The position numbers were made by a program, and so were the translations under genes. Shown one piece after another: positions 7,072 to 62,275 of a stretch of 64,000 nucleotides of DNA (positions are counted from its first letter, which is position 1; each line of letters starts with the position of its first letter). The notes under the pieces are model-generated. The model saw only the letters and a program-made list of their open reading frames with translations, did not search any database and was not told where the DNA came from. Origin of the DNA: Candidatus Enterousia sp. (lineage in GTDB: Bacteria; Pseudomonadota; Alphaproteobacteria; Rs-D84); contig JAZKZR010000008.1 in NCBI GenBank assembly GCA_045612805.1, positions 6,276-70,275 of the forward strand. The letters are read 5' to 3'.

Positions 7072-7200
7072 AATAGTGTTAGTGGTTAGTGGTTAGTGAG
7101 ATGCGTCACCCCGCTGAAAAGCGGGGCCTACGCGGAGTTGCAGAGAATTATTCTACGAATATGGCAACAAGATACCGCTTTACAGCGGTATGACGGAACT
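7072..7200. repeat. composite intergenic repeat element, copy A (TTAGTGG heptads + GC hairpin + GATACCGC hairpin)
   Basis: tagtgttagtggttagtggttagtg, then ccccgctgaaaagcgggg, then gataccgctttacagcggtatgacgg. The same architecture recurs at 31672, 39700 and 50540. Confidence 0.7.
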
Positions 7201-8985
7201 TTATTTTTCTTCCTGTAAAAATCCGCCGGATTGCATTTTCCAAAGTCGTGCGTATTCGCCACGTCGCCGTAAAAGCGCATTGTGCGTGCCGGATTCAACA
7301 ATTTTGCCGTTGTCCAAAACAACAATTCTATCCATGTTGCGTAATGTCGAAAGACGGTGTGCAATCGCGATTGTTGTTCGGTCATGCGACAATTTTTCAA
7401 ACGAATGTTGAATTGCAACCTCGGTTTCACTGTCCAGTGCGGATGTCGCCTCGTCAAGAATCAAAATCGGTGCATCTTTCAAAAACGCGCGTGCAATTGC
7501 GATGCGCTGACGTTGACCACCCGACATTTTTATTCCGCGGTCACCAACCAGTGTATCGTATTTCTTTTCCGTGCTACTGATGAATTTATCCGCCGATGCA
7601 AACCGCGCCGCATTTTTGATTTCCGCGAGGGTTGCGTCGGGGCGACCATATGCGATATTTTCACGAATCGTCCGATTGAACATCGCGGGGTCTTGGGGAA
7701 TAAAGGATATATTTTCACGCAAAGATTGCTGGGTTATCGTGCGAATGTCGGTGCCATCAATTAAAATTTCACCATGTGCAACATCGTAAAAACGCATCAG
7801 TAAATTTACAAGTGTCGTTTTTCCCGCACCCGATGGCCCAACAATTCCAACGCGTTCACCGGGTTTAATAGTAAGTGTCAAATCGCGCAAGACATATTTA
7901 TTTTTATATTTGAATGAAACATTTTTGAATTCAATTTTGCCACGTTTAACAACCAAATCCGGCGCATTCGGGGCATCGACCACTGTCAACGGGGTTGATA
8001 GTTCTTTATACCCCTTGTTCGCCGAAGCCATGCCATCAATTACAGTTGGTATTTTATTAATCAGGTTGCTTATCATACCCATAACATTATAATATACCGC
8101 CATACTGTAAACTATATCAGAAATTTTCATCATTCCGCGCGAATATAGGTATGCGCATAATACCAATGTTGCGCCAAACATAGCATCCCAGAAATATATC
8201 GGAACCGCCCATGATAAACGTTGCCAAAACGCGGCTGTCCTTATTGCCTGCACATGATCTTCACGCGGTTTCTCTAAATAGTCGTGTTCGTGCGTTTCGC
8301 CCGCAAAAAGTTTTACCGCTGTTTGATTTGCAAATCCGTCTAAAATTTTACCCGACAAAGCCGAATCTGTGCTGGCGCGGGTTTCAGCCGATTTTTTAAT
8401 TTTCTTGCGCAAAGCCCACACAAATCCGCCACGCAATATGAACATAATTATAAACGTCCACGCAATGTATTTGTTCACGGTAAATAATAATGTTGAATTT
8501 ATGGCAATCATTATTACACGCAAACATATCGCCCATACTTCTTGGATTAGTGTTTGCGCCCCATTTTGAACAAATCGTAAATTTGCGCTTACCGACCCAG
8601 CCATACGATTTACCCAAAACACCATAGATTGCAAATGAACATAATCGGTCAATACAGACGATATACGTTTGTTAACGTATGGTGTCATAACAGATAGACT
8701 GCGATTGCTTAAAATAGCAATTGTTGAGAAACTCATTTGTATACCAACCAGTAATAAAATTGTCGGCATTACATGGTGATATATTGCTGTCCCAAGTGGT
8801 GCACCTTCAAACATGGCGACTATCCACCGTTCAATAAATGGATAAACAACCGAACCCGAAAATTCTAAAAAACATAGAACCATAAATGGAATTATGTATT
8901 TATACAGGCCTGGAAAACACCGTTTAAAATAAAACCCAAGTAAAGTTTTTGGCATGAAATTATTTTGCGTTTCTGACTTTTTCAT
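7201..8985 (-). CDS. ABC exporter, fused permease + ATPase (MsbA/lipid A-exporter-like)
   Basis: N-terminal 6 TM, then Walker A GPSGAGKTT, signature LSGGQRQRIAIARA and Walker B ILILDEATSALD. Confidence 0.8.
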   Translation of the reverse strand: MKKSETQNNFMPKTLLGFYFKRCFPGLYKYIIPFMVLCFLEFSGSVVYPFIERWIVAMFEGAPLGTAIYHHVMPTILLLVGIQMSFSTIAILSNRSLSVMTPYVNKRISSVLTDYVHLQSMVFWVNRMAGSVSANLRFVQNGAQTLIQEVWAICLRVIMIAINSTLLFTVNKYIAWTFIIMFILRGGFVWALRKKIKKSAETRASTDSALSGKILDGFANQTAVKLFAGETHEHDYLEKPREDHVQAIRTAAFWQRLSWAVPIYFWDAMFGATLVLCAYLYSRGMMKISDIVYSMAVYYNVMGMISNLINKIPTVIDGMASANKGYKELSTPLTVVDAPNAPDLVVKRGKIEFKNVSFKYKNKYVLRDLTLTIKPGERVGIVGPSGAGKTTLVNLLMRFYDVAHGEILIDGTDIRTITQQSLRENISFIPQDPAMFNRTIRENIAYGRPDATLAEIKNAARFASADKFISSTEKKYDTLVGDRGIKMSGGQRQRIAIARAFLKDAPILILDEATSALDSETEVAIQHSFEKLSHDRTTIAIAHRLSTLRNMDRIVVLDNGKIVESGTHNALLRRRGEYARLWKMQSGGFLQEEK

Positions 8986-9065
8986 ATGAATATTCCCCCA
9001 CGATACAAACAGTCCTATTGTGGTGCAACACCCAAAAAAACGCAAGTGCATTTTTATAAAACAGG

Positions 9066-9093
9066 TTGAAAAATAAAATAAATTGGTTAAAAT
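9066..9093 (+). promoter_or_regulatory. sigma70-like promoter for tRNA-Glu (TTGAAA-16-TAAAAT)
   Basis: Hexamers seen directly. The predicted TSS is about 7 nt before the tRNA 5' end. Confidence 0.45.
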
Positions 9094-9107
9094 TGTTCTG
9101 TTTCGCC

Positions 9108-9182
9108 GGTCCCATCGTCTAGCGGTTAGGACATCGGATTCTCATTCCGGTAACACGGGTTCGATTCCCGTTGGGACTGCCA
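9108..9182 (+). tRNA. tRNA-Glu, anticodon CUC
   Basis: Hand-folded cloverleaf aligning to E. coli tRNA-Glu (GTCTAG D-arm, GGTTCGATTCC T-arm). Anticodon loop TTCTCAT, G1-U72 wobble, encoded CCA. Confidence 0.75.
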
Positions 9183-9188
9183 TAAAAA

Positions 9189-9814: not shown

Positions 9815-10273
9815 TTAATTCAGCAGTTCGCGCGCCTGGTGCAGTAAATCGACCGCGATATCCAACTTTGTTAAATCAATTGATGTGGCACCCGCGGGGC
9901 GTTCGTTCATAAAGTTATCATACACACTTTGCAACCGCGATTCCGGGTCGAAACTTTGCGGACGCGGTTCGGGACGCAACGCAGGCCGTGGGCGTGGCAC
10001 CGGTGTCCAAGACGCATTCGAATCAATCGCAGAAAATTCACCACTGCGTATCATTTTTTTGACCCCCGCGATGGTAAGCCCCCGGTTATACAATAAATCC
10101 TTTATCGTGCGCAGGCGCGCAACCATTTCGGCGCGATAATACCGTCGTCCGCCCGCACCCGCGACCGGGCGCACGACACTTGGAAATTGTTTTTCCCAAT
10201 AACGAAGTGTGTACGCTGGTATCCCAAGTTCTTGGGACACCGTATTTATTGATGCAAAATATTCGTTATCCAT
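9815..10273 (-). CDS. MerR-family transcriptional regulator
   Basis: HTH region [22 protein letters not shown]...RRYY, then a Pro/Arg-rich linker. Start taken at MDNEYF; overlaps the gyrA stop by 8 nt. Confidence 0.75.
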
Positions 10274-13457: not shown

Positions 13458-13485
13458 AAAAATCGCCAAATGGCGATTTTTTTTA
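13456..13485 (+). terminator. rho-independent terminator of rpmH
   Basis: aatcgccaaatggcgatt hairpin followed by a T8 run. Confidence 0.75.
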
Positions 13486-13591
13486 GTGGTTAGTGTTAGT
13501 GGCTGGTGGTTAGTGATAGCAAACAACAAAAACCGCCGGATTTCCGGCGGTTCACTAACTACTAACACTGGCCACTTAAACTAACCACTAA
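13483..13591. repeat. composite repeat copy B: TTAGTGG heptads as imperfect inverted arms around a GC hairpin
   Basis: ttagtggttagtgttagtggctggtggttagtg ... aaaccgccggatttccggcggtt ... cactaactactaacactggccacttaaactaaccactaa. The right arm supplies the last codons and the TAG stop of the 13581 gene. Confidence 0.7.
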
Positions 13592-14288
13592 TTTTTCCAT
13601 TTGTGGCGGTGATGTCGGCACCGATTTCAATTTTGCCGCCCGATTCACGCACAATCAATTCACCGGCACATATTTCCGCAAAATCAATTGTGCCGGACAT
13701 AAATGCATCAAATTTTCCCGCGGCAACCCATGCCAAATCCATCGCCGGGCAACCGGTTTCACGGACCGCACCAACGCCAAGCGGATTTCCCGCAATACCG
13801 TTGTATGCCGCCGTCATATCCGCCGGGTCTTTGATATTAGAAACGCGAATGCGCGCCGAATGAAATGCCGAATATGCAAATGCGCCCGCGCCCGATTCCG
13901 CATAATACAGATATTCATCAATTGGGGAATATATAAGTGCGATTTTCGTTTCATAACCCGTGCGCAGTGCAAGTGATATCGCAAATCGTGGATTTGCACG
14001 CACAAAATTTTCCGCCCCTGACAACGCCAAAACAAATTCATCGCGTCCGTCACCGTCACGCGTTAAATTCGGTGTCAAAAGTCCCGCCGACGGGCGAACA
14101 AGTGATAAATCTGATAAAATTTCTTCTTCGATTCGTGTGGCGGCACGATGCACAAAATCCCGCGCCCCGCGCAGGGATTGTTGCAGATTTTCAACTTCGC
14201 CAAAATCGTGACGCAAACCGGTTGCCGTTCGTTGCAACGCCATAAACATTTTATTCAGTTCCGGCGAACCCTTAATCAGCAAATCCAT
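13581..14288 (-). CDS. inositol monophosphatase family protein (SuhB-like)
   Basis: IMPase motifs LIYSPIDEY, WVAAGKFDAF and DFAEICAGELIV. C-terminal ...KISG* is encoded within repeat B. Confidence 0.8.
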   Translation of the reverse strand: MDLLIKGSPELNKMFMALQRTATGLRHDFGEVENLQQSLRGARDFVHRAATRIEEEILSDLSLVRPSAGLLTPNLTRDGDGRDEFVLALSGAENFVRANPRFAISLALRTGYETKIALIYSPIDEYLYYAESGAGAFAYSAFHSARIRVSNIKDPADMTAAYNGIAGNPLGVGAVRETGCPAMDLAWVAAGKFDAFMSGTIDFAEICAGELIVRESGGKIEIGADITATNGKISG

Positions 14289-14597: not shown

Positions 14598-14637
14598 AAT
14601 TAGTGGTTAGTGTTAGTGGTTAGTGTTAGTGGGCGGT
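14598..14637. repeat. TTAGTGG heptad repeat block (copy C)
   Basis: ttagtggttagtgttagtggttagtgttagtggg between rpmE and the flavodoxin-like gene. Confidence 0.65.
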
Positions 14638-14638
14638 A

Positions 14639-15154
14639 TCAATACTGGCCGATGCAACCAAGATATGAATTTCCGGTCGATTCAAGGATATTTACAAACT
14701 TGTTCTTATCATGCCCGGCAAACAGTGCAAGTATTGTTCCCGCATCCGTCGCCAACATATCCGCAACGGTTGCGATTTCGGAACTCATTTTCTTGAAAAA
14801 TCCACTTGTTGGGTATATTTCCGCCGCGAACAGTTGGTGTGCCGCACGCCGGCCATGATGCGTTGCGGGCGCGCTTTCAATTACCATCAATTGGCATTCG
14901 GGGGAAACAATAACCTTGTCCGTTATGGCCGCGTCCCCACCCAGCAATTCGCCCCACCAACCGGTTGAACCGCAAAACACAGGGTAATAGATAACCGCAT
15001 CGGGGTGCGTGGCAAAAATATCGGCGACATTTAAATCGCCTGTGACAACTTCTGGCATTGCGCCAATTGCCGCATTTATAACTTTGCGCGCCGTCTGATA
15101 TGTGGTATCGGACTTCGTGCTGTGTGGCCAATAAAGAATCGGAAATCTACTCAT
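14639..15154 (-). CDS. flavodoxin-like fold NAD(P)H oxidoreductase family protein (KefG/MdaB-like)
   Basis: ILYWPHS...S N-terminal pattern and AVIYYPVFCGSTGWW resemble the Flavodoxin_2 family. Judged by eye only. Confidence 0.5.
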   Translation of the reverse strand: MSRFPILYWPHSTKSDTTYQTARKVINAAIGAMPEVVTGDLNVADIFATHPDAVIYYPVFCGSTGWWGELLGGDAAITDKVIVSPECQLMVIESAPATHHGRRAAHQLFAAEIYPTSGFFKKMSSEIATVADMLATDAGTILALFAGHDKNKFVNILESTGNSYLGCIGQY

Positions 15155-23947: not shown

Positions 23948-24625
23948 ATGGCAAGGGTAATTTGTTTTGATATTGAAACGACCGGATTCGAATACCTGCG
24001 CGGCGACCGGTGCATCGAAATCGGCGCGGTGGAAATTGTGGATGGAAAAATCACCGATAAAACTTTTCACGAATACATAAATCCCGAAGGTAAAATTATT
24101 CCGCCGGAAACATATATGGTTCATAAAATTTCAAACGCGTTTTTGGATGACAAACCGAAAATGTCCGTTGTTGCACCAAAGTTTTTGGAATTTGTTGGTG
24201 ATTCAACAATTGTTGCACATAACGGATTGGACTTTGACTTTCCGTTTGTGAATCACGAATTGGAAATGTTGCACTTGCCGCCGATTCCGCGTTCGCAAAT
24301 GGCGGACACATTGGTCATCGCGCGCAATCGTGTGTTTGGTCCAAAAAGTTATACACTGGACGCACTTGCGAAATGGTTTGGAATATCACTGACCGCGCGT
24401 GCTGATGCACACGGGGCGTTGATTGACTCTGAAATTTTGGCCAAGGTTTATTTGGAACTTGAAAACACCGCGCCCGCGCCGGAAATTTCGGAAATTGTCG
24501 CGAAACAGCACGAGGCATTTTTGAAACACCCAAAAATTGGTGCGAATTTTCCATACCGTCAATTCCCGGTGTCAGATGCCGAACAAAAAATCCACGACGA
24601 ATTCATGGCAAAGTTGGGGGAATAA
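23948..24625 (+). CDS. dnaQ: DNA polymerase III epsilon subunit (3'-5' exonuclease)
   Basis: Exo motifs FDIETTG, VAHNGLDFDFPF and HGALIDSEIL. Confidence 0.88.
   Translation: MARVICFDIETTGFEYLRGDRCIEIGAVEIVDGKITDKTFHEYINPEGKIIPPETYMVHKISNAFLDDKPKMSVVAPKFLEFVGDSTIVAHNGLDFDFPFVNHELEMLHLPPIPRSQMADTLVIARNRVFGPKSYTLDALAKWFGISLTARADAHGALIDSEILAKVYLELENTAPAPEISEIVAKQHEAFLKHPKIGANFPYRQFPVSDAEQKIHDEFMAKLGE
24585..24625 (+). repeat. direct repeat copy 1 (native 3' end of dnaQ: aaaaaatccacgacgaattcatggcaaagttgggggaataa)
   Basis: Matched by two further near-identical copies at 25261 and 26241. Confidence 0.8.
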
Positions 24626-24629
24626 AATG

Positions 24630-25086: not shown

Positions 25087-25185
25087 TGTCATTGCGGCGT
25101 AGGCCGCAATAGGGCTAGGCATTTGTGACGAATATTTCGTAATAGTAAAATGTTTTTTGTCATTCTGAACTTGTTTCAGAACCCT
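25087..25185. repeat. two tandem GTCATT-hairpin elements
   Basis: gtcattgcggc-gtag-gccgcaat and gtcattctgaa-cttgtt-tcagaa. These belong to the same hairpin family seen inside the composite repeats. Confidence 0.55.
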
Positions 25186-25260
25186 ATGGCGGACCAGAAT
25201 CACCCAAAAAATGCTTTGCATTTTTTGGGGCCCGATGCCCGCCATGACAAAAAAACAACA

Positions 25261-25300
25261 AAAAACCCACGACGAATTCATGGCAAAGTTGGGGGAATAA
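25261..25300 (+). repeat. direct repeat copy 2 of the dnaQ 3' terminal 40-mer
   Basis: aaaaacccacgacgaattcatggcaaagttgggggaataa (1 mismatch to copy 1). Confidence 0.8.
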
Positions 25301-25301
25301 T

Positions 25302-26201: not shown

Positions 26202-26240
26202 AACATGGGAATTATATCATAAAACGGTTGGAGTGTAACA

Positions 26241-26280
26241 AAAAATCCACGACGAATTCATGGCAAAATTGGGGGAATAA
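26241..26280 (+). repeat. direct repeat copy 3 of the dnaQ 3' terminal 40-mer
   Basis: aaaaatccacgacgaattcatggcaaaattgggggaataa (1 mismatch). Confidence 0.8.
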
Positions 26281-26295
26281 AGGAATTAAAGTGTT

Positions 26296-31547: not shown

Positions 31548-31583
31548 TTATTTTCTCCCTTGGTTGGTGTGTATCGTTTATCT

Positions 31584-31614
31584 TTAAGGGCGGGGTTTTT
31601 CGCCCCGCCCTTAA
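31584..31614 (-). promoter_or_regulatory. GC-rich perfect hairpin in the nusA 5' leader (candidate attenuator/regulatory stem-loop)
   Basis: ttaagggcgggg-tttttcg-ccccgcccttaa. On the sense (minus) strand it is not followed by a U-tract. Confidence 0.45.
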
Positions 31615-31639
31615 AATTTAATCTTTTAAGAACACGTTG

Positions 31640-31671: not shown

Positions 31672-31850
31672 TTTTTTAGTGGTTAGTGGGGGGGAGTTGA
31701 TGGTTGGCAACGCCGTCATTCCGGCGAAAGCCGGGATCCCGTCGGATATGTCGCAATCCAATTCTCTGCAACATTGGTAGAGAAAAGATACCGGCCTGCG
31801 CCGGTATGACGTCAATGACACTTACACTAATCACTAACACTAATAATATA
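31672..31850. repeat. composite repeat copy D (heptads + GTCATTCC hairpin + GATACCGG hairpin + inverted heptads)
   Basis: ttagtggttagtggggg ... gtcattccggcgaaagccgggatcc ... gataccggcctgcgccggtatgacgtca ... cactaatcactaacactaa. Confidence 0.7.
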
Positions 31851-39553: not shown

Positions 39554-39699
39554 AACGAGTTCACAGTACGCAGATTATATAATATATTTGATAAAAATCA
39601 AGTGGTAAATTGTGGGACAGTGTTATCCGTCTTCGTCCGTCACCGCGAAGCGGTGCCGCGACTACGCCGAGACTGCGCCAGGGCTTTCGCCCCGGCTTG

Positions 39700-39850
39700 G
39701 TGTAAGTGGATAGTGATTAGTAAAGAACAAGTCATACCGCGGAAGCGCGGTATCTGGTGGGTTCAACGGTGACGACAAGATACCGCCCGAAATCACCCAC
39801 GCAAAACAAAGTTTTGCGCGGGGCCTGATACGGCGGTATGACGGGAATTT
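39700..39850. repeat. composite repeat copy E (heptad-like + GTCATACCGCG hairpin + long nested GATACCGC hairpin)
   Basis: gtaagtggatagtgattag ... gtcataccgcggaagcgcggtatc ... gataccgcccgaaatcacccacgcaaaacaaagttttgcgcggggcctgatacggcggtatgacgg. Confidence 0.65.
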
Positions 39851-49764: not shown

Positions 49765-49784
49765 AGGTTTTCTGACTTCTATTA

Positions 49785-49811
49785 AAACGGCGCGATGGCG
49801 CCGTTTTTTTA
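49785..49811 (+). terminator. rho-independent terminator
   Basis: cggcgc-gatg-gcgccg hairpin followed by a T7 run. Confidence 0.7.
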
Positions 49812-49858
49812 TTAACCGCCGGCACAAACCGTCTTGCATAAAATTTTCAACAAAACAC

Positions 49859-49886
49859 TTGACTTTTGGTATAAAAAGCGTAGTAT
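49859..49886 (+). promoter_or_regulatory. promoter of rplU-rpmA (TTGACT-16-TAGTAT)
   Basis: Hexamers about 45 nt upstream of the rplU ATG. Confidence 0.5.
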
Positions 49887-49929
49887 TTGCATAAACTTTT
49901 AGACAAAAGTTAAAATAAAAGGAAAAAAT

Positions 49930-50229
49930 ATGAGTGACTTTGCAATCTTTCAAACCGGCGGAAAGCAATATCGCGTAAAGGTCGGTGATGTTATCAAGGT
50001 TGAAAAATTGGATGCGACCGGCGATGTCACATTTGACCACGTTCTGATGTTGGGCGAAACCGTTGGAACGCCAACAATCGATGGGGCGCGGGTCGTGGCA
50101 ACCGTTGTCGAACAAAAACGCGCGCCTAAGGTTTTGGTGTTCAAGAAGAAACGTCGTCAAAACTATCGTCGCACACGCGGTCATCGCCAATTTATAACCG
50201 TGTTGAAAATCAAAGAAATCAAGGGCTAA
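49930..50229 (+). CDS. rplU: 50S ribosomal protein L21
   Basis: [24 protein letters not shown]. Confidence 0.93.
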
Positions 50230-50247
50230 AGTTAAAGGAGTTTAATT

Positions 50248-50514
50248 ATGGCACATAAGAAAGGTGGCGCGAGTACCGCAAACGGGCGCGATTCAGCGGG
50301 ACGCAGATTGGGGATTAAAAAATCCGGTGGCGCACGCGTGATTCCGGGCAATATCATTATTCGCCAACGCGGAACCGCCGTTCATCCGGGTGAAAATGTT
50401 GGTATGGGCAAAGACCACACCATATTTGCCAAGGTTGCCGGCAAGGTTTCGTTCAAACGCGGTTTCCGTGACCGCAAGACCGTATCGGTTATCCCCGATG
50501 AAAGCGAAAAATAA
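50248..50514 (+). CDS. rpmA: 50S ribosomal protein L27
   Basis: [24 protein letters not shown]... Confidence 0.93.
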
Positions 50515-50515
50515 C

Positions 50516-50541
50516 AAAAAACCGCCATTTGGCGGTTTTTT
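50516..50541 (+). terminator. rho-independent terminator of rplU-rpmA
   Basis: aaaaaccgccatttggcggttttttt. Confidence 0.75.
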
Positions 50542-50685
50542 TAGTGTTGGTGTAAGTGGTTGGCGAGGGCGCATTAGCACCCGTCATTCCGCGGCAACGC
50601 GGAATATCATCATTTTATCGTAATTCTATTTTCTCCGAGGCATCCTGCGAAGATACCGCCTTTCGGCGGTATGACGTCACTTTTA
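50540..50685. repeat. composite repeat copy F
   Basis: tagtgttggtgtaagtggttgg ... gtcattccgcggcaacgcggaat ... gataccgcctttcggcggtatgacgtca. Confidence 0.7.
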
Positions 50686-50727
50686 TCTTTTTTCCCTTTT
50701 TGTTTTGTGATATAATTACAGGTGAGT

Positions 50728-53301
50728 ATGAGGGTTTTTACACTTGGATTTTTAATTGCGCTGTATGCGCCGACCACGGTTTGCGTGGCGGCGGTGCCAT
50801 CGCGTGTTATTCCCGGAACAAATGCGACAATGGGTGGCGACAACGCGACCGCGACCGAAGAAAGGTCGGTTGCACCGGTTCGCACGGTTTCTGCAACGCG
50901 GACAACAAATGAAAGTCCCGACCGTGGTGCAATCACACGCAATATCGTTCGCACAATTCCAACAGATACAACACGCGAAGTCCAAACGACGACGCGTTCG
51001 GCGGGGCGCGCGGTTTCCGTGACCCGGTCACAAACGAATAAAGATTCAACGCGCAACAATCTGGATGCCGCGGTCCACAATGTTGGTCGGTCACAGCGCA
51101 CCGAATCCGCAAGTATAAACGCAAATCCGGCGGTGCGGCGTATGGGATTGACGTTGCGCCCATCCACCGCAGAGGTTGGCGGTCGCGCGATATTGGAATC
51201 CGGCGCCCAGACCGGGTCAAATATATCATCGGAAATTGGCAACCTTAGCCCGCGTATCGCGACGGTGCAAACACGTAAAGAAGAAAAATTAGACCCCGCA
51301 TCAATCGCCCAGGCCAAAGAACAATTGGAACAAAAGGCGGCATTGAATAAATCTTGCCAAGACCAATATAACGATTGCATGGACCAATTCTGTGCGGTGA
51401 TTGATGCGAATCAAAAGCGGTGTTCATGTTCGGCGAATTTATCAAAATATGTCGCGGTCGAAGAAGCCGTCAAAGAAGCAAATACTAAACTAAATGAAAT
51501 CGCGCAAAATATACGCTATGTGGGGCTTTCCGCCGATGAAATTACCGCGATTATGTCCGCGACCGAGGCCGAAGAGGCCATGACCGATATCACCGATACA
51601 ACGGAAAATCGCATGTTGTTATCAAGAATCGAACAAATGATAAAAGACCCAAAAACAACAAGTTCTTCGTCGTATGCGGTTGATTCATATGGATTGCTTG
51701 ACATAGATTTAGATTTTTCGTCCGAAGATTTGTCGGATATGTTTAGTTTGGATTTTCTTTCTGGGGCAAATAATGGTTTTTCAAACCTGCGCGGGGGCGA
51801 ATTATACAAGGCCGCAAAGCGTCGCTGTGAAACCGTGATAAAACAATGTCGCGATGTTGGCGCAACAAGTGACCAAATTACCGGCAATTATGATTTGGCG
51901 ATTGATAAAGATTGTATCGCGTATGAACAAGGTTTAACCAAGATGAATGAAACATTGGTATCCAATGTGCGCAGTGCAACGCGTATGCTGCAAAAGGCGC
52001 GACTTGCGGTGTTGCAAAATCAAAATACCTATGACGCGATTGGTTGTATTGGCGCACTTGAAAATTGCATGAAAGACGATATGGTGTGTGGCGACAACTA
52101 TTTCAAATGTATCGACCCGACCAAGAAGTATATCGATGAAAACGGTAATGTTGTTTTGGGGCAAAATATAAACAATATCCAAAAATTTATGGCAAATTAC
52201 AGCAACGCCGAAATCAACAGCACAAAATTGCAACAGGCATACGCCATGACATCGTTGGATGACCCAACCTGTTCAGGAAATAACGCAAATGACGGGCGTT
52301 GCGTGATAAAATACCTGCTAAGCAAAATCGGAACCCAGGCGGACGCGACCGCCGAGGGGCTTTGCCGACCGGTTTTGGATAAATGTCGCGCATATACATA
52401 TGATGACCGTGGCGCATATAAATCATATAACGATATTGTTGTGAACTATGTCCAACGTGCGATGGTGAATATAAGTGCCGCCCAGCATCAAATTGTGGCG
52501 GATTATGCGTCAACATGCCTAAACGATATTGCGACATGTTATAATAACCAGGTTTCACAGATAAATTCTTGGTCGGCGACGGCGGCGGCATCCAGTGTAT
52601 ATAACATTATGCGTGGCGCATGCCGTAATGTCGCCCTTACATGTGGATATGCGGTGTTTTCGGCGGACAGCACCAGTTGCCCCGACACCAACCCAACTAA
52701 GTGCATAGAAAGCATTTCAGAGATATTCTATCAATCGTTGCTCTGTCCGGATAATTCTTTCTATACCACTACACGTGGTTCCATTGCCGCAAATAATCAG
52801 TGGGGGTATGTAAACCCAATGTGTATTTGTAATGATGGGTATGTGGTGTTTTCTGGCCAATGCCTGCCCATATGTCAAGAAGGCGGCTATAACCGCAACG
52901 GTGTTTGCGATTCTAATTTGGCATGCCCAGATCATTCTTATAGCGTATTAAACAACACGGGTAATGTTAATGGTGGCAAATGTCAATGCGATGATTCGTA
53001 TGTCGCGTTTAACAATACTTGTGTCCAATGTCCCGAACATTCACAACCGGTGACATCTGGTGGTGACGCGTATAATGGTGCATGTATGTGCGACGCAGAC
53101 GATGAATATGTTTATATAACACGCAGTAAAACATGCAGAAAATGCCCGCAAAATTCCGACTATGTTCCAGCAACGGCCAATTCAAAGAGTAAATGCCAAT
53201 GCACAACAGAGGGGTATTCGTGGGATAGAATGTTTAATGTTTGTATGGATATGACACCGTCTATTGGTGTCGTTACACCCGGTGGCAATGCTAATGATTA
53301 G
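50728..53301 (+). CDS. large secreted Cys-rich protein, paralog B (857 aa) with C-terminal CxCxDxYV..C..CP repeat modules
   Basis: Signal peptide MRVFTLGFLIALYAPTTVCVAA. KSCQDQYNDCMDQFCAVIDANQKRCSC aligns with the paralog A block. The C-terminus carries 4 tandem ~30 aa Cys modules (CICNDGYVVFSGQCLPIC, CQCDDSYVAFNNTCVQCP, CMCDADDEYVYITRSKTCRKCP, CQCTTEGYSW). An extended -10 TGaTATAAT lies just upstream. Confidence 0.7.
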   Translation: MRVFTLGFLIALYAPTTVCVAAVPSRVIPGTNATMGGDNATATEERSVAPVRTVSATRTTNESPDRGAITRNIVRTIPTDTTREVQTTTRSAGRAVSVTRSQTNKDSTRNNLDAAVHNVGRSQRTESASINANPAVRRMGLTLRPSTAEVGGRAILESGAQTGSNISSEIGNLSPRIATVQTRKEEKLDPASIAQAKEQLEQKAALNKSCQDQYNDCMDQFCAVIDANQKRCSCSANLSKYVAVEEAVKEANTKLNEIAQNIRYVGLSADEITAIMSATEAEEAMTDITDTTENRMLLSRIEQMIKDPKTTSSSSYAVDSYGLLDIDLDFSSEDLSDMFSLDFLSGANNGFSNLRGGELYKAAKRRCETVIKQCRDVGATSDQITGNYDLAIDKDCIAYEQGLTKMNETLVSNVRSATRMLQKARLAVLQNQNTYDAIGCIGALENCMKDDMVCGDNYFKCIDPTKKYIDENGNVVLGQNINNIQKFMANYSNAEINSTKLQQAYAMTSLDDPTCSGNNANDGRCVIKYLLSKIGTQADATAEGLCRPVLDKCRAYTYDDRGAYKSYNDIVVNYVQRAMVNISAAQHQIVADYASTCLNDIATCYNNQVSQINSWSATAAASSVYNIMRGACRNVALTCGYAVFSADSTSCPDTNPTKCIESISEIFYQSLLCPDNSFYTTTRGSIAANNQWGYVNPMCICNDGYVVFSGQCLPICQEGGYNRNGVCDSNLACPDHSYSVLNNTGNVNGGKCQCDDSYVAFNNTCVQCPEHSQPVTSGGDAYNGACMCDADDEYVYITRSKTCRKCPQNSDYVPATANSKSKCQCTTEGYSWDRMFNVCMDMTPSIGVVTPGGNAND

Positions 53302-53365
53302 TCGGTTTCACTACCAAAACCCGCGCCATTTGGCGCGGGTTCACTTACACTAAACACTTTCAATA
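53302..53365. repeat. partial composite repeat copy G, containing the ppdK terminator hairpin
   Basis: cactaccaaaa ... aacccgcgccatttggcgcgggtt ... cacttacactaaacactt (inverted-orientation heptad relatives). On the minus strand the hairpin is followed by a T-run. Confidence 0.55.
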
Positions 53366-53376
53366 ACACTCTTGTG

Positions 53377-56034
53377 CTACTTCCGTGGGAATTTGACCGC
53401 CGCCTGGGCCGCGGCTAAGCGTGCAATTGGCACACGGAACGGACTGCACGAAACAGAATTGAATCCGCATTTGTGGAAGAATTCAATCGATTCCGGATCA
53501 CCACCGTGTTCGCCGCACACGCCAAGGTGGATTTTGTCACCCTTGGTCGCGCGTGCCTTTTGCACCGCGTCTTTTATCAGAAGCCCTACGCCCAATTGGT
53601 CAACCGATGCAAATGGGTCGGCAACATAGATTCCGCGCGCACGGTATTCATCCAAAATCTTGCCCGTATCATCACGCGACATTCCAAGTGTTGTTTGTGT
53701 CAAATCGTTTGTGCCAAATTCAAAGAATTCGCAACTTTCCGCGATTTCGTTCGCCAAAACCGCCGCACGCGGCAATTCAATCATAGAACCAACCGTGTAT
53801 TCGACGCTTTCGCCCGTTTCCGCAAACAGTGATTTCGCCGTCGCATCAATTACGGATTTAACAATATCGACTTCTTTTTTCGAACCCACAAGTGGCACTT
53901 CGATTTCAGGATGCACCGAAACGCCCGCCCGTTTGCATTCCAATGCCGCCGACAATATCGCGCGTGTTTGCATTTCGCAAATTTCCGGATATGTAATCGC
54001 AAGACGGCATCCACGATGCCCAAGCATCGGGTTTTGTTCATGCAACGCATCCGCACGCCCCTTTACGAATTCCACCGGTTTACCAATGTGTGCGGCAAGT
54101 TCCGCAATATCCGCATCGGTATGTGGCAAGAATTCATGTAATGGCGGGTCAATCAAACGAATGGTGACCGGCAGGCCGTCCATAATCTTGAACAATTCGA
54201 TAAAGTCCGCCTTTTGATACGGCAACAGTTTTGCCAACGCCGCACGGCGACCGTCTTCGTCTTCGGCCAAAATCATTTCACGCATATCTTGGATACGCGC
54301 CGGATCAAAGAACATGTGTTCCGTCCGCGCAAGTCCGATACCTTCGGCGCCAAAATCGCGCGCCTGTTTTGCGTCCTTGGGCGTTTCGGCGTTTGCCTTG
54401 ACGGTAAGTGTTTTGATTTCATCAACCCATTGCATAAGTGTTCCGAAATTACCCGTCAATTCCACAGAAACCGTTGGGACCGCGCCTTCGATAATTTGCC
54501 CTTTGGCCCCGTCAATGGAAACCCAATCGCCTTCGTGGATAACCGCCCCGGATGTCGTCTTCATCGTTTTGGATTCATAATCGATTTTGATATCCGGGCT
54601 GCCCGAAACACATGGTGTTCCCATACCGCGCGCAACCACCGCCGCGTGTGATGTCATACCACCACGTGCGGTAATCACACCTTGGGCCGCGTTCATACCC
54701 GCGATATCTTCGGGCGATGTTTCAACGCGGATAAGCATAACTTTTTTACCCGCGGCCGCCCATTTTTCGGCATCTTCGGCATTGAACACCGCCTGACCCA
54801 CCGCGGCACCCGGGGACGCAGGTAACCCGTTCGCAATAACCTTGCGTTCCGCCTTGGGGTCCAACATCGGGTGCAACAAGTGATTCAATTGGTCGGCACC
54901 AACGCGCAAAATTGCCTCTTCTTTGGTAAGTAAACCTTCGTTCACCATTTCAACCGCCATGCGAACCGCCGCCGCCGCCGTGCGTTTACCATTACGGCAT
55001 TGCAACATCCAAAGTTTCCCATGTTCGATGGTGAATTCCATATCTTGCATATCTTTATAGTGTTTTTCCAATTTTTCACGCACATCGCAAAGTTCACGAT
55101 AAACATTTGGCATGGCTTCTTCCAATGACACGCGGCCGGAATCATCCTTGCTCATCGGTTGCGGGGTACGAATACCGGCAACAACGTCTTCGCCTTGGGC
55201 GTTAATCAGGTATTCACCATAGTATTTGTTTTCGCCGGTTGCAGGGTCACGGCTGAAACACACACCGGTCGCACTGTCATCGCCGGAATTTCCAAAGACC
55301 ATCGCTTGGACATTGACGGCGGTGCCCCAATCGCCCGGGATATTATTTAATTTGCGGTATGTGATGGCCTTTTTGCTCATCCATGAACCGAACACCGCGC
55401 CGATACCAAGTTTTAACTGTTCCCATGGGTCCTGGGGGAAAACCTTGCCAATTTTAACACCGATTTCTTTGAATTGTTCCACCAATTGTTTCAAATCGTC
55501 GGCGGTCAGTTCGGTGTCAACCTTGTATCCCTTTTCTTCCTTCATGCGTTCCAAAGTGTGTTCGAACAAATCGATATCCGCGCCCAACACAACGTCACTA
55601 AACATCATGATAAAGCGGCGATATGAATCGTATGCAAATCTTTCGTTACCAGAGATTTTTGCCAACGCCCGCACCGTTTCATCATTCAAACCCAAATTCA
55701 AAACCGTATCCATCATCCCCGGCATAGAAACGCGCGCACCCGAACGCACCGACACCAAAAGTGGATTTTCCATATCGGCGAACTTTTTGCCCATAATCTT
55801 TTCAATATGCGCGATACCGGCGCGAACCTGGTCCATCAAATCCGCCGGATATGTTTGGTTGTTTTCATAGTAATATGTACAAACCTCTGTCGTGACGGTA
55901 AAGCCCGCCGGAACCGGCAACCCAACCAAATTCATTTCCGCCAAATTTGCACCCTTGCCCCCAAGCAAGTTACGCATATCGGCGCGACCTTCGGCATGAC
56001 CATCGCCAAATGTATAAACCCATTTATTACTCAT
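53377..56034 (-). CDS. ppdK: pyruvate, phosphate dikinase
   Basis: 885 aa from MSNKWVYTF (SD aaggaga). GGKGANLAEM ATP-grasp loop, phospho-His region GGMTSHAAVVARGMG, and a C-terminal PEP/pyruvate domain. Confidence 0.95.
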   Translation of the reverse strand: MSNKWVYTFGDGHAEGRADMRNLLGGKGANLAEMNLVGLPVPAGFTVTTEVCTYYYENNQTYPADLMDQVRAGIAHIEKIMGKKFADMENPLLVSVRSGARVSMPGMMDTVLNLGLNDETVRALAKISGNERFAYDSYRRFIMMFSDVVLGADIDLFEHTLERMKEEKGYKVDTELTADDLKQLVEQFKEIGVKIGKVFPQDPWEQLKLGIGAVFGSWMSKKAITYRKLNNIPGDWGTAVNVQAMVFGNSGDDSATGVCFSRDPATGENKYYGEYLINAQGEDVVAGIRTPQPMSKDDSGRVSLEEAMPNVYRELCDVREKLEKHYKDMQDMEFTIEHGKLWMLQCRNGKRTAAAAVRMAVEMVNEGLLTKEEAILRVGADQLNHLLHPMLDPKAERKVIANGLPASPGAAVGQAVFNAEDAEKWAAAGKKVMLIRVETSPEDIAGMNAAQGVITARGGMTSHAAVVARGMGTPCVSGSPDIKIDYESKTMKTTSGAVIHEGDWVSIDGAKGQIIEGAVPTVSVELTGNFGTLMQWVDEIKTLTVKANAETPKDAKQARDFGAEGIGLARTEHMFFDPARIQDMREMILAEDEDGRRAALAKLLPYQKADFIELFKIMDGLPVTIRLIDPPLHEFLPHTDADIAELAAHIGKPVEFVKGRADALHEQNPMLGHRGCRLAITYPEICEMQTRAILSAALECKRAGVSVHPEIEVPLVGSKKEVDIVKSVIDATAKSLFAETGESVEYTVGSMIELPRAAVLANEIAESCEFFEFGTNDLTQTTLGMSRDDTGKILDEYRARGIYVADPFASVDQLGVGLLIKDAVQKARATKGDKIHLGVCGEHGGDPESIEFFHKCGFNSVSCSPFRVPIARLAAAQAAVKFPRK

Positions 56035-56231
56035 GGTGTCTCCTTTTTTTATTGTTATTATTTTTGCGAAGCAATTTTTCAAAAAAAAATTCACGATTGC
56101 AACGAAAAATATTTTTATTTTGATTTTTTTGTGGTATAATATATGTATACAAAACAACAACAAACAAAGGTCTGCGTTCAATGCGATAAAACGTGTTGAT
56201 GCAGATTTTTTATTTTTAATCAATTTTATAC

Positions 56232-56260
56232 TTTACAAAAATTTGCAATATTGGTATCAT
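56232..56260 (+). promoter_or_regulatory. candidate promoter (TTTACA-17-TATCAT)
   Basis: Upstream of the 56292 secreted-protein gene. Confidence 0.4.
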
Positions 56261-56291
56261 TAAGACAAAGGAATTCTTTGAAAGGGCGGGA

Positions 56292-56846
56292 ATGATGCAT
56301 TGTTTTCATAAAGTTTGTTTGTTTTCTGTGCTTGTGATGATTGCCGTGCCGTTTGGCGCGATGGCAACCGAAATTATGGCAACCAAGGAATATGTTGATT
56401 TAACCACAGTAACAAAACACCAAGGAACACAGGGGCAAATGTTACAGGTTAATAGTAGTGGTGATGTGGCTCTTGTCACGCCGTCAAGTACGCCGACGAA
56501 TGGTTCCACGCTTCCGATTACATCAGGTGCGGTTTATGATGCGTTGGAAGGCAAAGAAGATGTAAGCAATAAGTTAAATGGAACGTCAACGTCGGGGCAA
56601 AAGATTGGCGACCTTGCCGCCGGTAGTGGCGATGGCCAAGACCAGGTTATGTATCCATCTGCCGCCGCGGTCAAGGAATATGCGGTTCGTAAGCCAACCA
56701 GCGTAAGTAACGGCAAAGTTTTAACATATACAGGCAACGACGTAAATAGCCGGCCAGAGGCAAAATATATTCAGGTTCCGATGGCGACTGGTGATCCGGC
56801 AACCAGTGGCACAGTAAGTGGTGTGGCATCAATTTGGTTGCAATAA
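56292..56846 (+). CDS. secreted hypothetical protein with a thrice-repeated (K/Y)EY(V/A) / AVYDAL-like motif
   Basis: N-terminal hydrophobic signal; Gly/Ser/Thr-rich. Motifs ATKEYVD, SGAVYDAL and SAAAVKEYA. Confidence 0.5.
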   Translation: MMHCFHKVCLFSVLVMIAVPFGAMATEIMATKEYVDLTTVTKHQGTQGQMLQVNSSGDVALVTPSSTPTNGSTLPITSGAVYDALEGKEDVSNKLNGTSTSGQKIGDLAAGSGDGQDQVMYPSAAAVKEYAVRKPTSVSNGKVLTYTGNDVNSRPEAKYIQVPMATGDPATSGTVSGVASIWLQ

Positions 56847-56873
56847 AAAAATCGGCTTTGTGCCGATTTTTTT
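56845..56873. terminator. bidirectional terminator
   Basis: aaaaaaatcggctttgtgccgattttttt between convergent genes. Confidence 0.75.
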
Positions 56874-60078: not shown

Positions 60079-60822
60079 TTATTCCGCGCGGACAACACGG
60101 CAAAAGACGACGCCATATACCCCCGCCGCGCCCGCACGCCGCAGAACGCGCGAAAGTTCATTAAATGTTGCACCCGATGTCATAACATCATCGACCAATA
60201 AAATCTTTTTCCCGCGCAACGCATCGCGGTTTTTAACACTGAATACGCCGCGAATATGTTGTGCGCGCTGTGCGTGCGTTTTGTGTCCCATATTTGGACG
60301 ATATTTACGATGCACACTGTTAAAGTCAATCGGCGCACCATACGCACGCGCGATTTCCCGCGACAGCAATGTTGCCTGGTTATATCCGCGTTGAAACAGG
60401 CGCCGATTCGCAAGTGGCACTGGCATAATCAAATCCGGTTTAATATCAACATCGCGCAGTGCCCATATCATCGCATGCGACATAAATCGTGCGAACTTTA
60501 TGCGGCCGCCATGCTTAAACGGCAACATAACAGACCGCGACATATCATCATATCGACATGCGGCACGAACATATTCCAATTCGTTCTTGCCCGCGGCGCA
60601 CACCGGACACAAAGATTTCTTGTTCGATTCGTATTCATCGGGGAACGGATAGCCACAGCATGCACAATGCGCCCCATCAATCCAATCAAAATACCCAAAA
60701 CAATCATCGCACAATTCACCGTGCTTTTTCACCCGCGCCGAACATATCGGACAAGACGGCGGAAACAAAAAATCAATGATTGAATTAAAACATTTGCGAC
60801 AAAAAGACCCGAACACAGACAC
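60079..60822 (-). CDS. comF: ComF-family phosphoribosyltransferase-domain protein
   Basis: N-terminal Cys4 zinc finger (CPIC...CDDC) and a C-terminal PRTase motif ILLVDDVMTSGAT. Confidence 0.75.
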   Translation of the reverse strand: MSVFGSFCRKCFNSIIDFLFPPSCPICSARVKKHGELCDDCFGYFDWIDGAHCACCGYPFPDEYESNKKSLCPVCAAGKNELEYVRAACRYDDMSRSVMLPFKHGGRIKFARFMSHAMIWALRDVDIKPDLIMPVPLANRRLFQRGYNQATLLSREIARAYGAPIDFNSVHRKYRPNMGHKTHAQRAQHIRGVFSVKNRDALRGKKILLVDDVMTSGATFNELSRVLRRAGAAGVYGVVFCRVVRAE

Positions 60823-60828
60823 GGTGCA

Positions 60829-62184
60829 TTACCAACTTAAACTTTTATATTTTTTCGAACTGGTCCCGTATTTATTGCGCGTTTGCTTGGTAAGTGTTTC
60901 ATATTGTTCATTTGAAATCACACGCAGGACAAAACCTTCTTCGTCACGACTTGATAAAATCGGAACAATGCGATTTTCCGAAACGCCCGTATCGCGCAAA
61001 ACCTGTTCCACAATTGCCAGACGTCGCGCTGCAAGTTTCCGCGCATCGGTTGTTTCGGTTGCAACCGCCGGAATTGCGATTTGAATTGCGCGCTTTGGAT
61101 TGCTGACCACTATGCCGGCGTATTCCGAAAGTAAATTGTAATTTTCACGCGACAATGCCGAATCGGTATTTTTGAATTTTATTTTTATTTCCAACGGACG
61201 AATTCTGTCAGATTCTTCGGACAAATCACGCGTGGATGTAAAACCTTCAATGGATGTGTCAATATCACTTGCCGCATCAAAACGGTCATCAATCGGGTAT
61301 GTAGAAAGGTGTTTGTTTTCCGACAAAAATGTTTTCCTGAACGCGCGACGCAATTCCGACGGTGTCATATTTTTCATATCGTTTCGAACTTCTTCGATTT
61401 TAGGTGACGCGTTTTTGCGTGCGACACGGGTGATTACATCGTCACCATCTTCGTCACGTGGCACCACAAGACGCGAAAGTTTTACACCATCGCCCACAGG
61501 TTCCGCAACACCGGCCAGTGTTCGTGTTGGCACCCGTTCCGGTGTGGCCGCAATTTCACGCGTTGGATTTATTGCGACCGACCCGGAAGAATAAATGTTT
61601 GTTTCAACCGATGGTAAATCCGCAACCGGACGCACCGCGACCGATTCTTCGGCGCGACGTTGCATATCCATTAAACGCGTAATCTGTGCATCCAGCGCAC
61701 TGGTCCGGACGGCCAATTCAGAAATTTCGTCATCGCGGTCATTGTTGCGCGCAACCACGGGAATCGGCGCCGGCGCAATCTCTTCCTCTGGCAAAACATC
61801 ATTTGATGTTAGGATCGAAAATTCATTCGCATGCGGCATACGCAATGGCGTGTCATTTTTTGCCCACAAATCAGAACTCGGCCGATTCGGAAGCAAATAA
61901 TCCGCCATAACCGCACTGCGCGTATTTACATCATTTGCGAAATTTTGTGTGGTGGCCGTGCGTGCGACAACACGTTTTTTATCCGTCACCGGATGCACCG
62001 AATCCGCAACCCGCGACGCAACAACCGACACCGGGCGCGCGCCGCGCGTTGATACCGTTGTCAAACCGTATTGTTCGCGTGCCGAAACCGCCGCCCCTGA
62101 TGTATTTACCGCCGGCAACCGTGCGCCCGCAAAGGCCGGCAAAACCAACAAAAATCCCAATCCAGAAACCAGAGTTCGTTTCAT
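60829..62184 (-). CDS. secreted protein with a C-terminal OmpA/MotB-like peptidoglycan-binding domain
   Basis: Signal peptide MKRTLVSGLGFLLVLPAFAGA. The C-terminal DARKLAARRLAIVEQVLRDTGV...RVI resembles the OmpA_C fold. Confidence 0.5.
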   Translation of the reverse strand: MKRTLVSGLGFLLVLPAFAGARLPAVNTSGAAVSAREQYGLTTVSTRGARPVSVVASRVADSVHPVTDKKRVVARTATTQNFANDVNTRSAVMADYLLPNRPSSDLWAKNDTPLRMPHANEFSILTSNDVLPEEEIAPAPIPVVARNNDRDDEISELAVRTSALDAQITRLMDMQRRAEESVAVRPVADLPSVETNIYSSGSVAINPTREIAATPERVPTRTLAGVAEPVGDGVKLSRLVVPRDEDGDDVITRVARKNASPKIEEVRNDMKNMTPSELRRAFRKTFLSENKHLSTYPIDDRFDAASDIDTSIEGFTSTRDLSEESDRIRPLEIKIKFKNTDSALSRENYNLLSEYAGIVVSNPKRAIQIAIPAVATETTDARKLAARRLAIVEQVLRDTGVSENRIVPILSSRDEEGFVLRVISNEQYETLTKQTRNKYGTSSKKYKSLSW

Positions 62185-62242
62185 GTTCCTTTCCTTCCTT
62201 ACCCCATCATAGAACAATTCACGAATCGCACGCAAGTGTTTT

Positions 62243-62275
62243 TTATAGTGCAAGTGGAAAGTGTTAGTGGTTAGT
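62243..62275. repeat. partial heptad repeat copy H
   Basis: gtggaaagtgttagtggttagtatcgg. Confidence 0.5.

Follow-up and report, generated by a model that had tools for sequence, protein, structure and literature searches.

A 64-kb stretch of the Candidatus Enterousia sp. genome (the window; 44.7% G+C) carries, at recurrent intergenic sites, tandem arrays of a TTAGTGG heptad together with small hairpins, which the first-pass annotation had described as one composite repeat. All eight sites that it listed were recovered within a few bases, and the modular, recurrent architecture was confirmed: the triple core AGTG-N2-3-AGTG-N2-3-AGTG gave 12 matches in the window, where 0.00 were expected and none of 100 dinucleotide shuffles produced any. 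The single composite element did not hold, as the four copies match each other, and all other sequences compared, solely over modules of ~27-33 nt. What had been taken for two different types of hairpin turned out to be one family of repetitive extragenic palindromic (REP) hairpins, CGTC-1, in inverted orientation. The 'composite repeat' is probably a lineage-specific intergenic mosaic of two independent kinds of small palindromic DNA, CGTC-tagged REPs and heptad arms. The REP heterodimers would correspond to units of the type of REPINs (two inverted REPs with a short spacer) and bacterial interspersed mosaic elements (BIMEs). The arrays of ~5 (T)TAGTG(G) units would form the arms, in inverted orientation, of a second family of long palindromes. 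They lie between a terminator T-run and the next -35, and would bracket a slot open to the insertion or exchange of REPs and other small hairpins. As to the host, the window proteins match gut and rumen Alphaproteobacteria metagenome-assembled genomes (MAGs), LptF/G matching a goat-omasum MAG (GCA_017427405.1) at ~91%.

CGTC-tagged REP hairpins and their pairs

Tagged hairpins with an 8-bp stem and a 4-nt loop were found at 7105(+), 7172(-), 25088(+), 31715(+), 31788(-), 39731(+), 50583(+) and 50653(-). A tagged hairpin with a 5-nt loop lies at 25159(+), and a shorter one with a 6-bp stem at 39638(+). The window contains ~12 REPs, most of them in the following features:

7064..7199 (+): copy A, 136 bp inserted between the stop codon of the ABC transporter and the S11-peptidase -35
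7104..7130 (+): REP of copy A, CGTC-ACCCCGCT-GAAA-AGCGGGGC-CTA, folding as its own hairpin
7169..7195 (-): REP of the ATACC type, CGTC-ATACCGCT-GTAA-AGCGGTAT-CTT, head-to-head partner of REP 7104-7130
25087..25252 (+): within the dnaQ cassette, a TGTC-tagged REP (25087-25113) and the head-to-head pair 25158-25185 / 25190-25252, the second member with a nested 44-nt hairpin
31676..31844 (+): copy B, short TTAGTG arm 31676-31690, REP of the ATTCC type 31714-31740, 44-nt spacer
31785-31844 (-): right part of copy B, REP of the ATACC type 31785-31811, CACTAA arm 31818-31844
39634..39843 (+): copy C cluster, short-stem CGTC REP 39634-39661, degenerate heptads 39702-39722, REP 39730-39756, 22-nt spacer
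39779-39843: inverted REP of copy C, nested hairpin at ~39790-39833
50541..50676 (+): copy D, degenerate TTAGTG arm 50541-50565, REP of the ATTCC type 50582-50608, spacer
50650-50676 (-): second REP of copy D, ATACC type

The second hairpin of the first-pass annotation, GATACCGC...GCGGTATGACG, reads CGTC-ATACCGC...GCGGTAT-CTT on the opposite strand, which is the same layout as that of CGTC-ATTCCGGC-GAAA-GCCGGGAT-CCC. Both hairpins of a copy, in inverted orientation, follow the general form [C/T]GTC-A(T/C)NCCNNN-loop-... To describe this form, 35 distinct REPs were gathered from the window and its relatives with a [CT]GTCA seed, allowing at most one stem mismatch. In the tag, G2, T3 and C4 never vary and the first base is C or T, which is partly a product of the seed. 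Stem position 1 is A in 35/35 (again partly made by the seed) with U as its partner in 26/35, and position 2 is U-A in 31/35. Seven of the eight stem pairs vary on both sides; because the pairing filter makes the figure of 96% paired positions circular, this covariation alone counts as evidence. The 4-nt loops read GAAA, GCAG, GAAG and others, and the 3′ tails CCA (8), CTT (5), CCC (4), CTC (4) and others, C-initial like the CCA consensus yet variable. A generic hairpin finder returned 15 hairpins in the window and 7.9±2.9 in shuffles, a background so high that significance rests on the specific REP family and not on hairpins generally.

CGTC-tagged REPs have been catalogued by Di Nocera, De Gregorio & Rocco (2013, PMC3733652): an unpaired CGTC (or TGTC; CCTC allowed) tag is followed by an 8-9-bp stem starting with A-T, a 4-5-nt loop and a 3-nt tail with the consensus CCA. 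They are predominantly alphaproteobacterial and occur in tens to thousands of copies, mainly as head-to-head dimers whose tags face outwards and whose spacers measure 20-100 bp (PMC3733652). Type CGTC-1 was equated with the Neisseria dRS3 element and also includes Rickettsia RPE-6 (PMC3733652). On the agreement of tag, stem and loop with that description, on a short tail that is C-initial like the consensus, and on the seven covarying stem pairs, both hairpins of the window copies are classed as CGTC-tagged REPs of type CGTC-1. The window elements share with this type the tag, the 8-bp stem, the 4-nt loop, the 3-nt tail, the head-to-head dimers, the extragenic location, the alphaproteobacterial host and the lack of an adjoining transposase gene, and some copies likewise touch or supply gene ends. 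They differ from it in their tails, which are often CTT or CCC and not CCA, in a recurrent sub-type with a 44-nt hairpin nested in the REP loop, and in being regularly enclosed by heptad arms, which are undescribed for CGTC-1. The REP pairs thus add an uncultured gut/rumen alphaproteobacterial lineage to a catalogued class. The first hairpin had been described as of the GTCATTCC type, which does not extend to copy A, whose first hairpin is CGTCACCCCGCT... A Neisseriaceae origin, suggested by the GTCATTCC...GGAAT hairpin, was rejected because the window proteins match uncultured Alphaproteobacteria MAGs; the resemblance is explained by the shared CGTC-1 class. Rfam offered no match for the repeats: in the window three tRNAs alone reached the gathering score, and copy B gave nothing meaningful at E ≤ 10.

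The window has five head-to-head REP pairs with spacers of ~22-48 bp, except for the pair at 25159-25252, where the spacer is ~4 bp. This fifth pair lies in the dnaQ cassette, for which solo hairpins had been reported; the hairpins exist, and the pair is among them. Most REPs are arranged in this way, as heterodimers that combine an ATTCC, ATCCC or ACCCC stem with an ATACC stem, 20-50 bp apart. A spacer motif had been claimed for every full copy: gttgcagagaatt is indeed present in opposite orientations in copies A and B, it is missing from the other copies, and 'aattct' alone is uninformative. A scan of one genome per species with the pattern AGATACCG-N8-CGGTATGAC gave matches in >119 contigs from many phyla. 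The hosts among the matches listed include gut/rumen Alphaproteobacteria (with Ca. Enterousia), Rickettsiales, Thermopetrobacter, Sphingomonas, Binatia, Methylotenera, Thalassotalea and Desulfobacterales. An inverted tagged partner with an ATCCC, ATTCC, ACCCC or ATACC stem lay within 160 nt in 68 of the 125 matches listed (median spacer 31 nt), as opposed to just 1 control window, 500 nt away, and in these matches the pair occurs without heptads in many other phyla. This excess of partners across phyla identifies the succession of hairpin 1, spacer and hairpin 2 as an ordinary head-to-head REP heterodimer. The pairing of ATYCC/ACCCC with ATACC stems, ~31 nt apart, is found again in Binatia, Methylotenera, Thalassotalea, Desulfobacterales, Ignavibacteria and Thermopetrobacter (L006-L124), which suggests different roles for the two stem types, one as the left end and one as the right.

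A ~44-nt hairpin, GGGCCCCGCAAAA...TTTTGCGGGTGA, is nested in the loop of the second REP of some pairs, always in the same orientation to the tag. In the window it is found at 39790-39833 (copy C), where it interrupts the second hairpin of the copy annotated at 39700-39850, and at 25200-25243 (in 25190-25252); in relatives it occurs at L125 9840-9885 (in 9829-9899) and in L086, L109 and L201. Copy C is predicted to fold as one long hairpin (-54.2 kcal/mol, z -5.5), and the same sub-architecture is present at L125 9786-9899. The REPs of copies A, B and D form two separate hairpins each (z -2 to -4). The two inverted REPs with a short spacer, the single long hairpin of copy C and the insertion of a window element without target duplication all resemble REPINs. 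Unlike the REPINs of Bertels & Rainey (2011), the window pairs do not include near-identical doublets around a master sequence and their spacers are unrelated, as judged on a very small sample.

Heptad arrays and armed palindromes

Tandem Repeats Finder detected the heptad arrays with periods 7 and 13. The arrays and the promoter and terminator features that go with them are:

7066-7099 (+): array of 5 units in copy A, read as CACTAA on the - strand and ending 6-7 nt short of a TTGACC -35
7058..7029 (-): promoter beside the copy A array, found by the promoter scanner
13483..13591 (no strand): heptad-armed palindrome without REP, TTAGTG arm 13483-13515, terminator hairpin 13530-13553, CACTAA arm 13553-13591(-)
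14599..14641 (+): array of 5 units (14599-14631) with the half-REP remnant GGCGGTATCA, directly upstream of the rpmE promoter (- strand)
39702-39722 (+): degenerate array, part of the copy C cluster
50541-50565 (+): degenerate array, the arm of copy D, just after the rpmA terminator
53302..53361 (-): terminator hairpin with heptad units at its flanks, array 53342-53361(-), between the convergent 854-aa gene and PPDK
62244..62276 (+): array of 5 units, flanked by a zeta-toxin-like gene and by the promoter of the gene that follows (both - strand)

Copy B and 13483-13591 have both arms; copies A, C and D and the sites 14599 and 62244 have a single one. The palindrome 13483-13591 separates the convergent rpmH and suhB-like genes. 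Its arms close a 118-nt hairpin (-59.3 kcal/mol, z -10.2), which bears out the earlier description of inverted, MITE-like arms around a hairpin (MITE, miniature inverted-repeat transposable element). In copy B the arms close the whole REP pair (-72.2 kcal/mol, z -6.6), and the z-scores of arm-closed structures range from -4 to -10. The array of L001 orthologous to that at 14599 has kept its length and AGTG cores with a changed unit pattern, and the array at 62244-62276 is kept in L125 and L126. A heptad variant at 13502-13509 spells GCTGGTGG, the Chi octamer of E. coli, which is probably a coincidence. The heptads also resemble DnaA or CtrA boxes, the UAG repeats bound by HutP or TRAP, and a Rho loading site, a resemblance only.

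The exact 19-mer TTAGTGGTTAGTGTTAGTG was found in >120 metagenome contigs and in none of the viral contigs searched. In 120 metagenome loci carrying TTAGTGGTTAGTGTTAGTG (median G+C 44.7%) we counted 207 heptad arrays of 3-18 units, with a mode of 5 (33 nt). A fixed array length of 33 nt was discarded in view of this variation. Seventy-two of the 207 arrays form 36 inverted pairs at most 300 nt apart, and all 36 run (TTAGTG)n...(CACTAA)n, with 0 in the reverse order. The most frequent interior between the arms is a 42-nt core, CTGGAAT-(AT-rich palindrome)-ATTCCAG, which gives an arm-core-arm palindrome of ~110 bp (-58.3 kcal/mol, z -8); the window was searched for this core and does not contain it. 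Alternative interiors are terminators, several further small hairpins and REP pairs. Relative to the TTAGTG arrays, REPs are located 3′ in 18 cases and 5′ in two, and only ~9% of the 207 arrays have a REP within 90 nt. Given the 36 to 0 polarity of the pairs, the core of their own and the rarity of nearby REPs, the heptad arrays are a family separate from the REP hairpins. Among the genome matches listed the heptads are confined to gut/rumen alphaproteobacterial loci, and a literature search with the heptad strings returned unrelated primer or telomere-control matches only. The heptad-armed palindromes are apparently an undescribed, abundant and lineage-specific repeat family, which, unlike the REP pairs, would be new. 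Other palindromic modules between heptad arms are the CCCCTC-N-GAGGGGAACTTTG and GGTGCCGGGTAGCACCCGGCGGGG hairpins (L142, L184, L186, L215, L228, L132 9872-9930); the CCCCTC-N-GAGGGGAACTTTG module includes the motif GTTGCAGAG(A/T) that stands in the spacers of window copies A and B.

The arrays have a defined position relative to genes. Read in the TTAGTG direction they follow a terminator T-run, at rpmH, at rpmA and in eight further cases of this kind. Read in the CACTAA direction they end 5-8 nt short of a -35, in at least five cases in the window. The promoter scanner confirmed 3/5 of the array-adjacent promoters (S11-peptidase, lptF/G and nusA), and the promoters of rpmE and of the gene at 60829-62185 were read manually, with a good -10 and a weak -35. 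The same arrangement of array before promoter is seen in several metagenome loci, e.g. CACTAAAAAAACATTGACA. Promoter-like and terminator-like counts at arrays and REPs do not exceed those of shuffled controls, so that this is a positional pattern and not proof of function.

The copies had been placed at gene ends throughout and were proposed to act as terminators or RNA-stability elements. All are intergenic, as claimed; the copy at 31672-31850, however, lies between the divergent nusA and lptF/G promoters, downstream of no gene, and the arrays 14599-14631 and 62244-62276 are just upstream of promoters. Most REPs lack a U-run, two are weakly flagged as terminator-like, and the true terminators beside the arrays are separate hairpins. 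Since most REPs are without a U-run and copy B sits between divergent promoters, and with arrays abutting a -35, dedicated termination is insufficient as an explanation. By analogy, a role of the REPs in RNA stability is possible. REPs elsewhere are known to serve in 3′ stabilisation, attenuation and protein binding. Once transcribed, the hairpins and the arm-arm stem might have a secondary role in stabilising 3′ ends or as sites of processing, and would not be dedicated terminators.

Heptad arrays provide the stop codons of three genes. The SuhB-like ORF at 13581-14288(-) ends ...TATNGKISG* with its TAG within the array, as the first-pass annotation had noted. The homologue in the 96% relative ends ISD* in heptads, and that in a ~78% relative ends KISVE* without heptads, which supports the view that an array replaced the native end of this gene. 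At 62244-62276, the first TAA of the array is the stop codon of the upstream zeta-toxin-like gene in L125 and L126. Modules of this kind give rise to spurious ORFs, provide stop codons and flag spacers that are prone to recombination, which matters for the annotation and binning of MAGs.

Strain comparison and competing explanations

Presence and absence among related genomes had been suggested as a check, together with a search for target-site duplications. The former was seen at two sites, and at the junctions of these two comparisons there was no duplication. Copy A is absent from L001, whose DNA is 96% identical, and from the outgroup L002/L003/L005 (~77%), and hence is a derived insertion. 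Its junctions read GGGTCAACA(G/A)GA|...|TTTATTT, and the stop codon and the TTGACC promoter on either side are otherwise colinear. The second site is occupied by a 30-nt CGTC-tagged mini-REP, TCCGTCTCCGCAAAGCGGAGCCGAGACAAG, which splits a heptad unit (TTA|GTG) in L125, L126, L128, L129 and L130; the site is empty in the window (53349/53350) and in L127, again without target duplication. The two comparisons show the recent gain of a CGTC REP pair and of a mini-REP between ~96%-identical strains.

Exchange of interiors was observed at locus D, which runs from rpmA to the 854-aa gene, and at locus B, between nusA and lptF/G, where the terminator/promoter frame and the arms are conserved and the interiors differ. 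The window has REP pairs; at locus B, L131 has arms and core only, and L132 the core and another hairpin. At locus D the six relatives L125-130 carry other modules, with a CACTAA right arm where the window has a REP, and L127 changes from window-type to L125-type sequence within a REP. The filled and empty sites, the exchanged interiors and the lack of whole-copy similarity argue for a mosaic with turnover, similar to BIMEs or to the Neisseria intergenic mosaic elements (NIMEs), and not for one MITE. As in the BIMEs of E. coli and in NIMEs, REPs form an intergenic patchwork in alternating orientation, interleaved with other short modules, at strain-variable sites. The partner modules are different here (heptad arms, the CTGGAAT core, the CCCCTC hairpin and the nested CCCGCAAAA hairpin), and so is the host lineage.

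How the modules move can be suggested from the junctions. REPs might spread as single-stranded hairpins with the help of an HUH/Y1 enzyme, similar to the REP-associated tyrosine transposases (RAYTs) and encoded elsewhere in the genome. Such handling would fit the lack of target duplication, the hairpin-defined ends and the presence of the CGTC tag where RAYT-processed REPs have GTAG. A Neisseria REP of the CGTC-1 class, ATTCCCGCGCAGGCGGGAATC (dRS3 type), has been treated as a REPIN tied to a Group 2 RAYT (bioRxiv 10.1101/2021.07.10.451892). Alternatively, recombination between dispersed arms or REPs might drive the exchanges. The 2013 survey left open whether CGTC REPs still copy and what moves them, and the filled and empty junctions offer concrete material for judging an HUH-type mechanism.

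Several points weigh against the mosaic of two independent, mobile families. Just two clean filled/empty pairs were seen. Copy A carried an array into an array-free site, which means that the two families are not always independent, and it could itself be a patch copied by recombination from another locus rather than a product of transposition. No RAYT was found by tblastn in the window or in ~1.7 Mb of DNA from 264 related loci, a tiny sampling searched with an approximate E. coli RAYT query. Pfam found no transposase domain in ten unannotated ORFs of the window. The GC skew tracks gene orientation only and is uninformative on the replication strand, and the count of ~12 REPs covers 64 kb of this genome. 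The survey of CGTC REPs, too, reported no dedicated transposase (PMC3733652).

The elements might instead be host-evolved punctuation, i.e. terminators, RNA-stability elements or insulators that arose in place, are kept by selection and do not move. Every copy is intergenic, the arrays stand beside terminator T-runs and 5-8 nt from a -35, three genes take their stop codons from them, and orthologous arrays hold their AGTG cores and length while the unit pattern shifts; the CACUAAC reading, being free of G and rich in C, would also suit a Rho loading site. This explanation is nevertheless unlikely, because it does not account for clean presence and absence in close strains, for the exchange of interiors, for a copy located between divergent promoters with nothing there to terminate, for REPs without U-runs and counts no higher than in shuffles, or for the same REP class being scattered in unrelated phyla. 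We regard as still less probable a single MITE family, in which the heptads would be terminal inverted repeats, the two hairpins the interior, and a DDE transposase would move the whole unit. The inverted arms of copy B and 13483-13591, the arrival of copy A as one block with array and both hairpins, and the canonical ~110-bp arm-core-arm unit of the relatives speak for it. Yet copy A has one arm only and, like the mini-REP, no target-site duplication; the four copies are dissimilar beyond REP-sized modules, interiors change at orthologous loci while the arms stay, and ~91% of the arrays are without a nearby REP, the REP pair in turn occurring in many phyla without heptads.

Strain-variable interiors between conserved arms would also be expected if the heptads were DNA-uptake or recombination signals, the cassettes being exchanged by transformation and homologous recombination, and the inverted pairs around terminators may recall the placement of uptake sequences in Neisseria. 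We give this very little credence, since the arrays are seen only in intergenic DNA and consist of a variable number of short tandem units, whereas known uptake sequences are fixed 10-12-mers that occur also within genes. Finally, chance likeness of unrelated terminators, to which the high background of generic hairpins would lend itself, is already refuted by the 12 heptad triple cores against 0, by the same tagged pair in >119 contigs and by the 19-mer in >120 metagenome contigs, and its probability is practically nil.

Two other kinds of element served as leads only. Correia elements of Neisseria are short, palindromic and intergenic and lie near promoters or terminators; they have no known transposase. 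In the window elements no TA duplication was seen, and the sequence likeness is limited to a TAGTGG string in the Correia end. Eukaryotic foldback transposons, like the heptad-armed palindromes, have inverted arms made of short tandem repeats.

PF05635 cassettes in relatives and neighbouring features

In relatives, pairs of arms 340-370 nt apart tightly enclose a gene whose product matches PF05635, the family named '23S rRNA intervening sequence protein', at E 5e-35 and 3e-40, and bAvd weakly. The window has no PF05635 gene, and the arm-enclosed form is known from these loci:

L147 1480-1895: arm-enclosed PF05635 gene
L146 1518-1880: the same
L190 and L233: the same
L219 1843-2285: the same
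L254 2430-2900: the same
L258 2440-2920: the same
L260: the same

The PF05635 ORF starts a few bases past the TTAGTG arm and stops in frame within the CACTAA arm, which encodes its last seven codons (LTTNTNH*). This tail is found in ~45 of the 120 closest homologue clusters, to roughly 60% identity, and is absent in more distant homologues. The cassette lies between rbfA and lepA in many contigs, beside rnhA (dxs/rnhA) in a Rickettsiales MAG and elsewhere in L219, so that arm-enclosed copies of the gene are seen in at least three unrelated genomic contexts. Lying downstream of the promoter, the arms are transcribed, and a predicted 24-bp stem closes the ORF.

A similar arrangement is known from Coxiella burnetii, where the 23S rRNA intervening sequence (IVS) encoding S23p/PF05635 has terminal inverted repeats forming a 28-bp stem that is cut by RNase III (PMC4990558). 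Like that IVS, the cassettes of the relatives hold a PF05635 gene within terminal inverted repeats that are predicted to form a long stem in the transcript. They differ from it in residing in mRNA leaders (rbfA-lepA, dxs/rnhA) and not in 23S rRNA, in having arms of tandem heptads, and in that copies without the ORF are spread over intergenic regions; a search of the window for rRNA genes found none. It is conceivable, if on balance doubtful, that the heptad-armed palindromes are non-autonomous partners of the arm-enclosed, single-copy gene for this four-helix-bundle protein, by analogy with REPs and the RAYT gene. The protein would then bind the TTAGTG/CACUAA repeats as DNA or RNA, an arm stem of the RNase III type would render insertions harmless in transcripts, and IVS-like elements would have spread into the ordinary intergenic DNA of alphaproteobacteria from gut, rumen and termites. 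Like the armed palindromes themselves, the connection with PF05635 would be new. If it is true, the family gains its first concrete cis partner, and a functional link would bring rRNA intervening sequences into a broader group of elements and hint at what the poorly understood PF05635 proteins do.

Some further features of the region are recorded here. Three 45-bp direct repeats, 96-98% identical (24582-24626, 25257-25301 and 26237-26281), are copies of the 3′ terminus of the dnaQ-like exonuclease gene and form the borders of cassettes, one with a 123-aa ORF and REPs, followed by one with EamA. L131 and L132 are without the first dnaQ cassette at that place, and L132 has a related segment after EamA. 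The dnaQ end looks like a site of cassette integration or shuffling. Near copy B, a strong 14-bp hairpin, TTTAAGGGCGGGG...CCCCGCCCTTAAA, at 31583-31615 lies in the nusA leader, between promoter and start codon, and is conserved in L131 and L132; it may be an autoregulatory attenuator.

Compared with the window and L127, the strains L125, L126, L128, L129 and L130 have a 7-kb segment, ~49810-56860, in inverted orientation; it holds rplU-rpmA, the 854-aa gene, PPDK and a 184-aa gene. Its breakpoints match the positions of the bidirectional terminator hairpins 49784-49807 and 56845-56871, and at one junction L125 carries a REP pair and two additional genes. L001 carries a 1.4-kb insertion (3486-4866) between the suhB terminator and rpmH, with a secreted-looking ORF of 361 aa that has no Pfam match, where the window has an inverted heptad arm (13491-13525). 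The window segment 16299-21815 encodes four large membrane-protein ORFs without obvious annotation, and in relatives the type IV secretion genes TrbI, VirB8 and CagX adjoin the syntenic block (L001 19562-21785; L002 18356-21791). This segment may be a conjugative or type IV secretion region of variable content.

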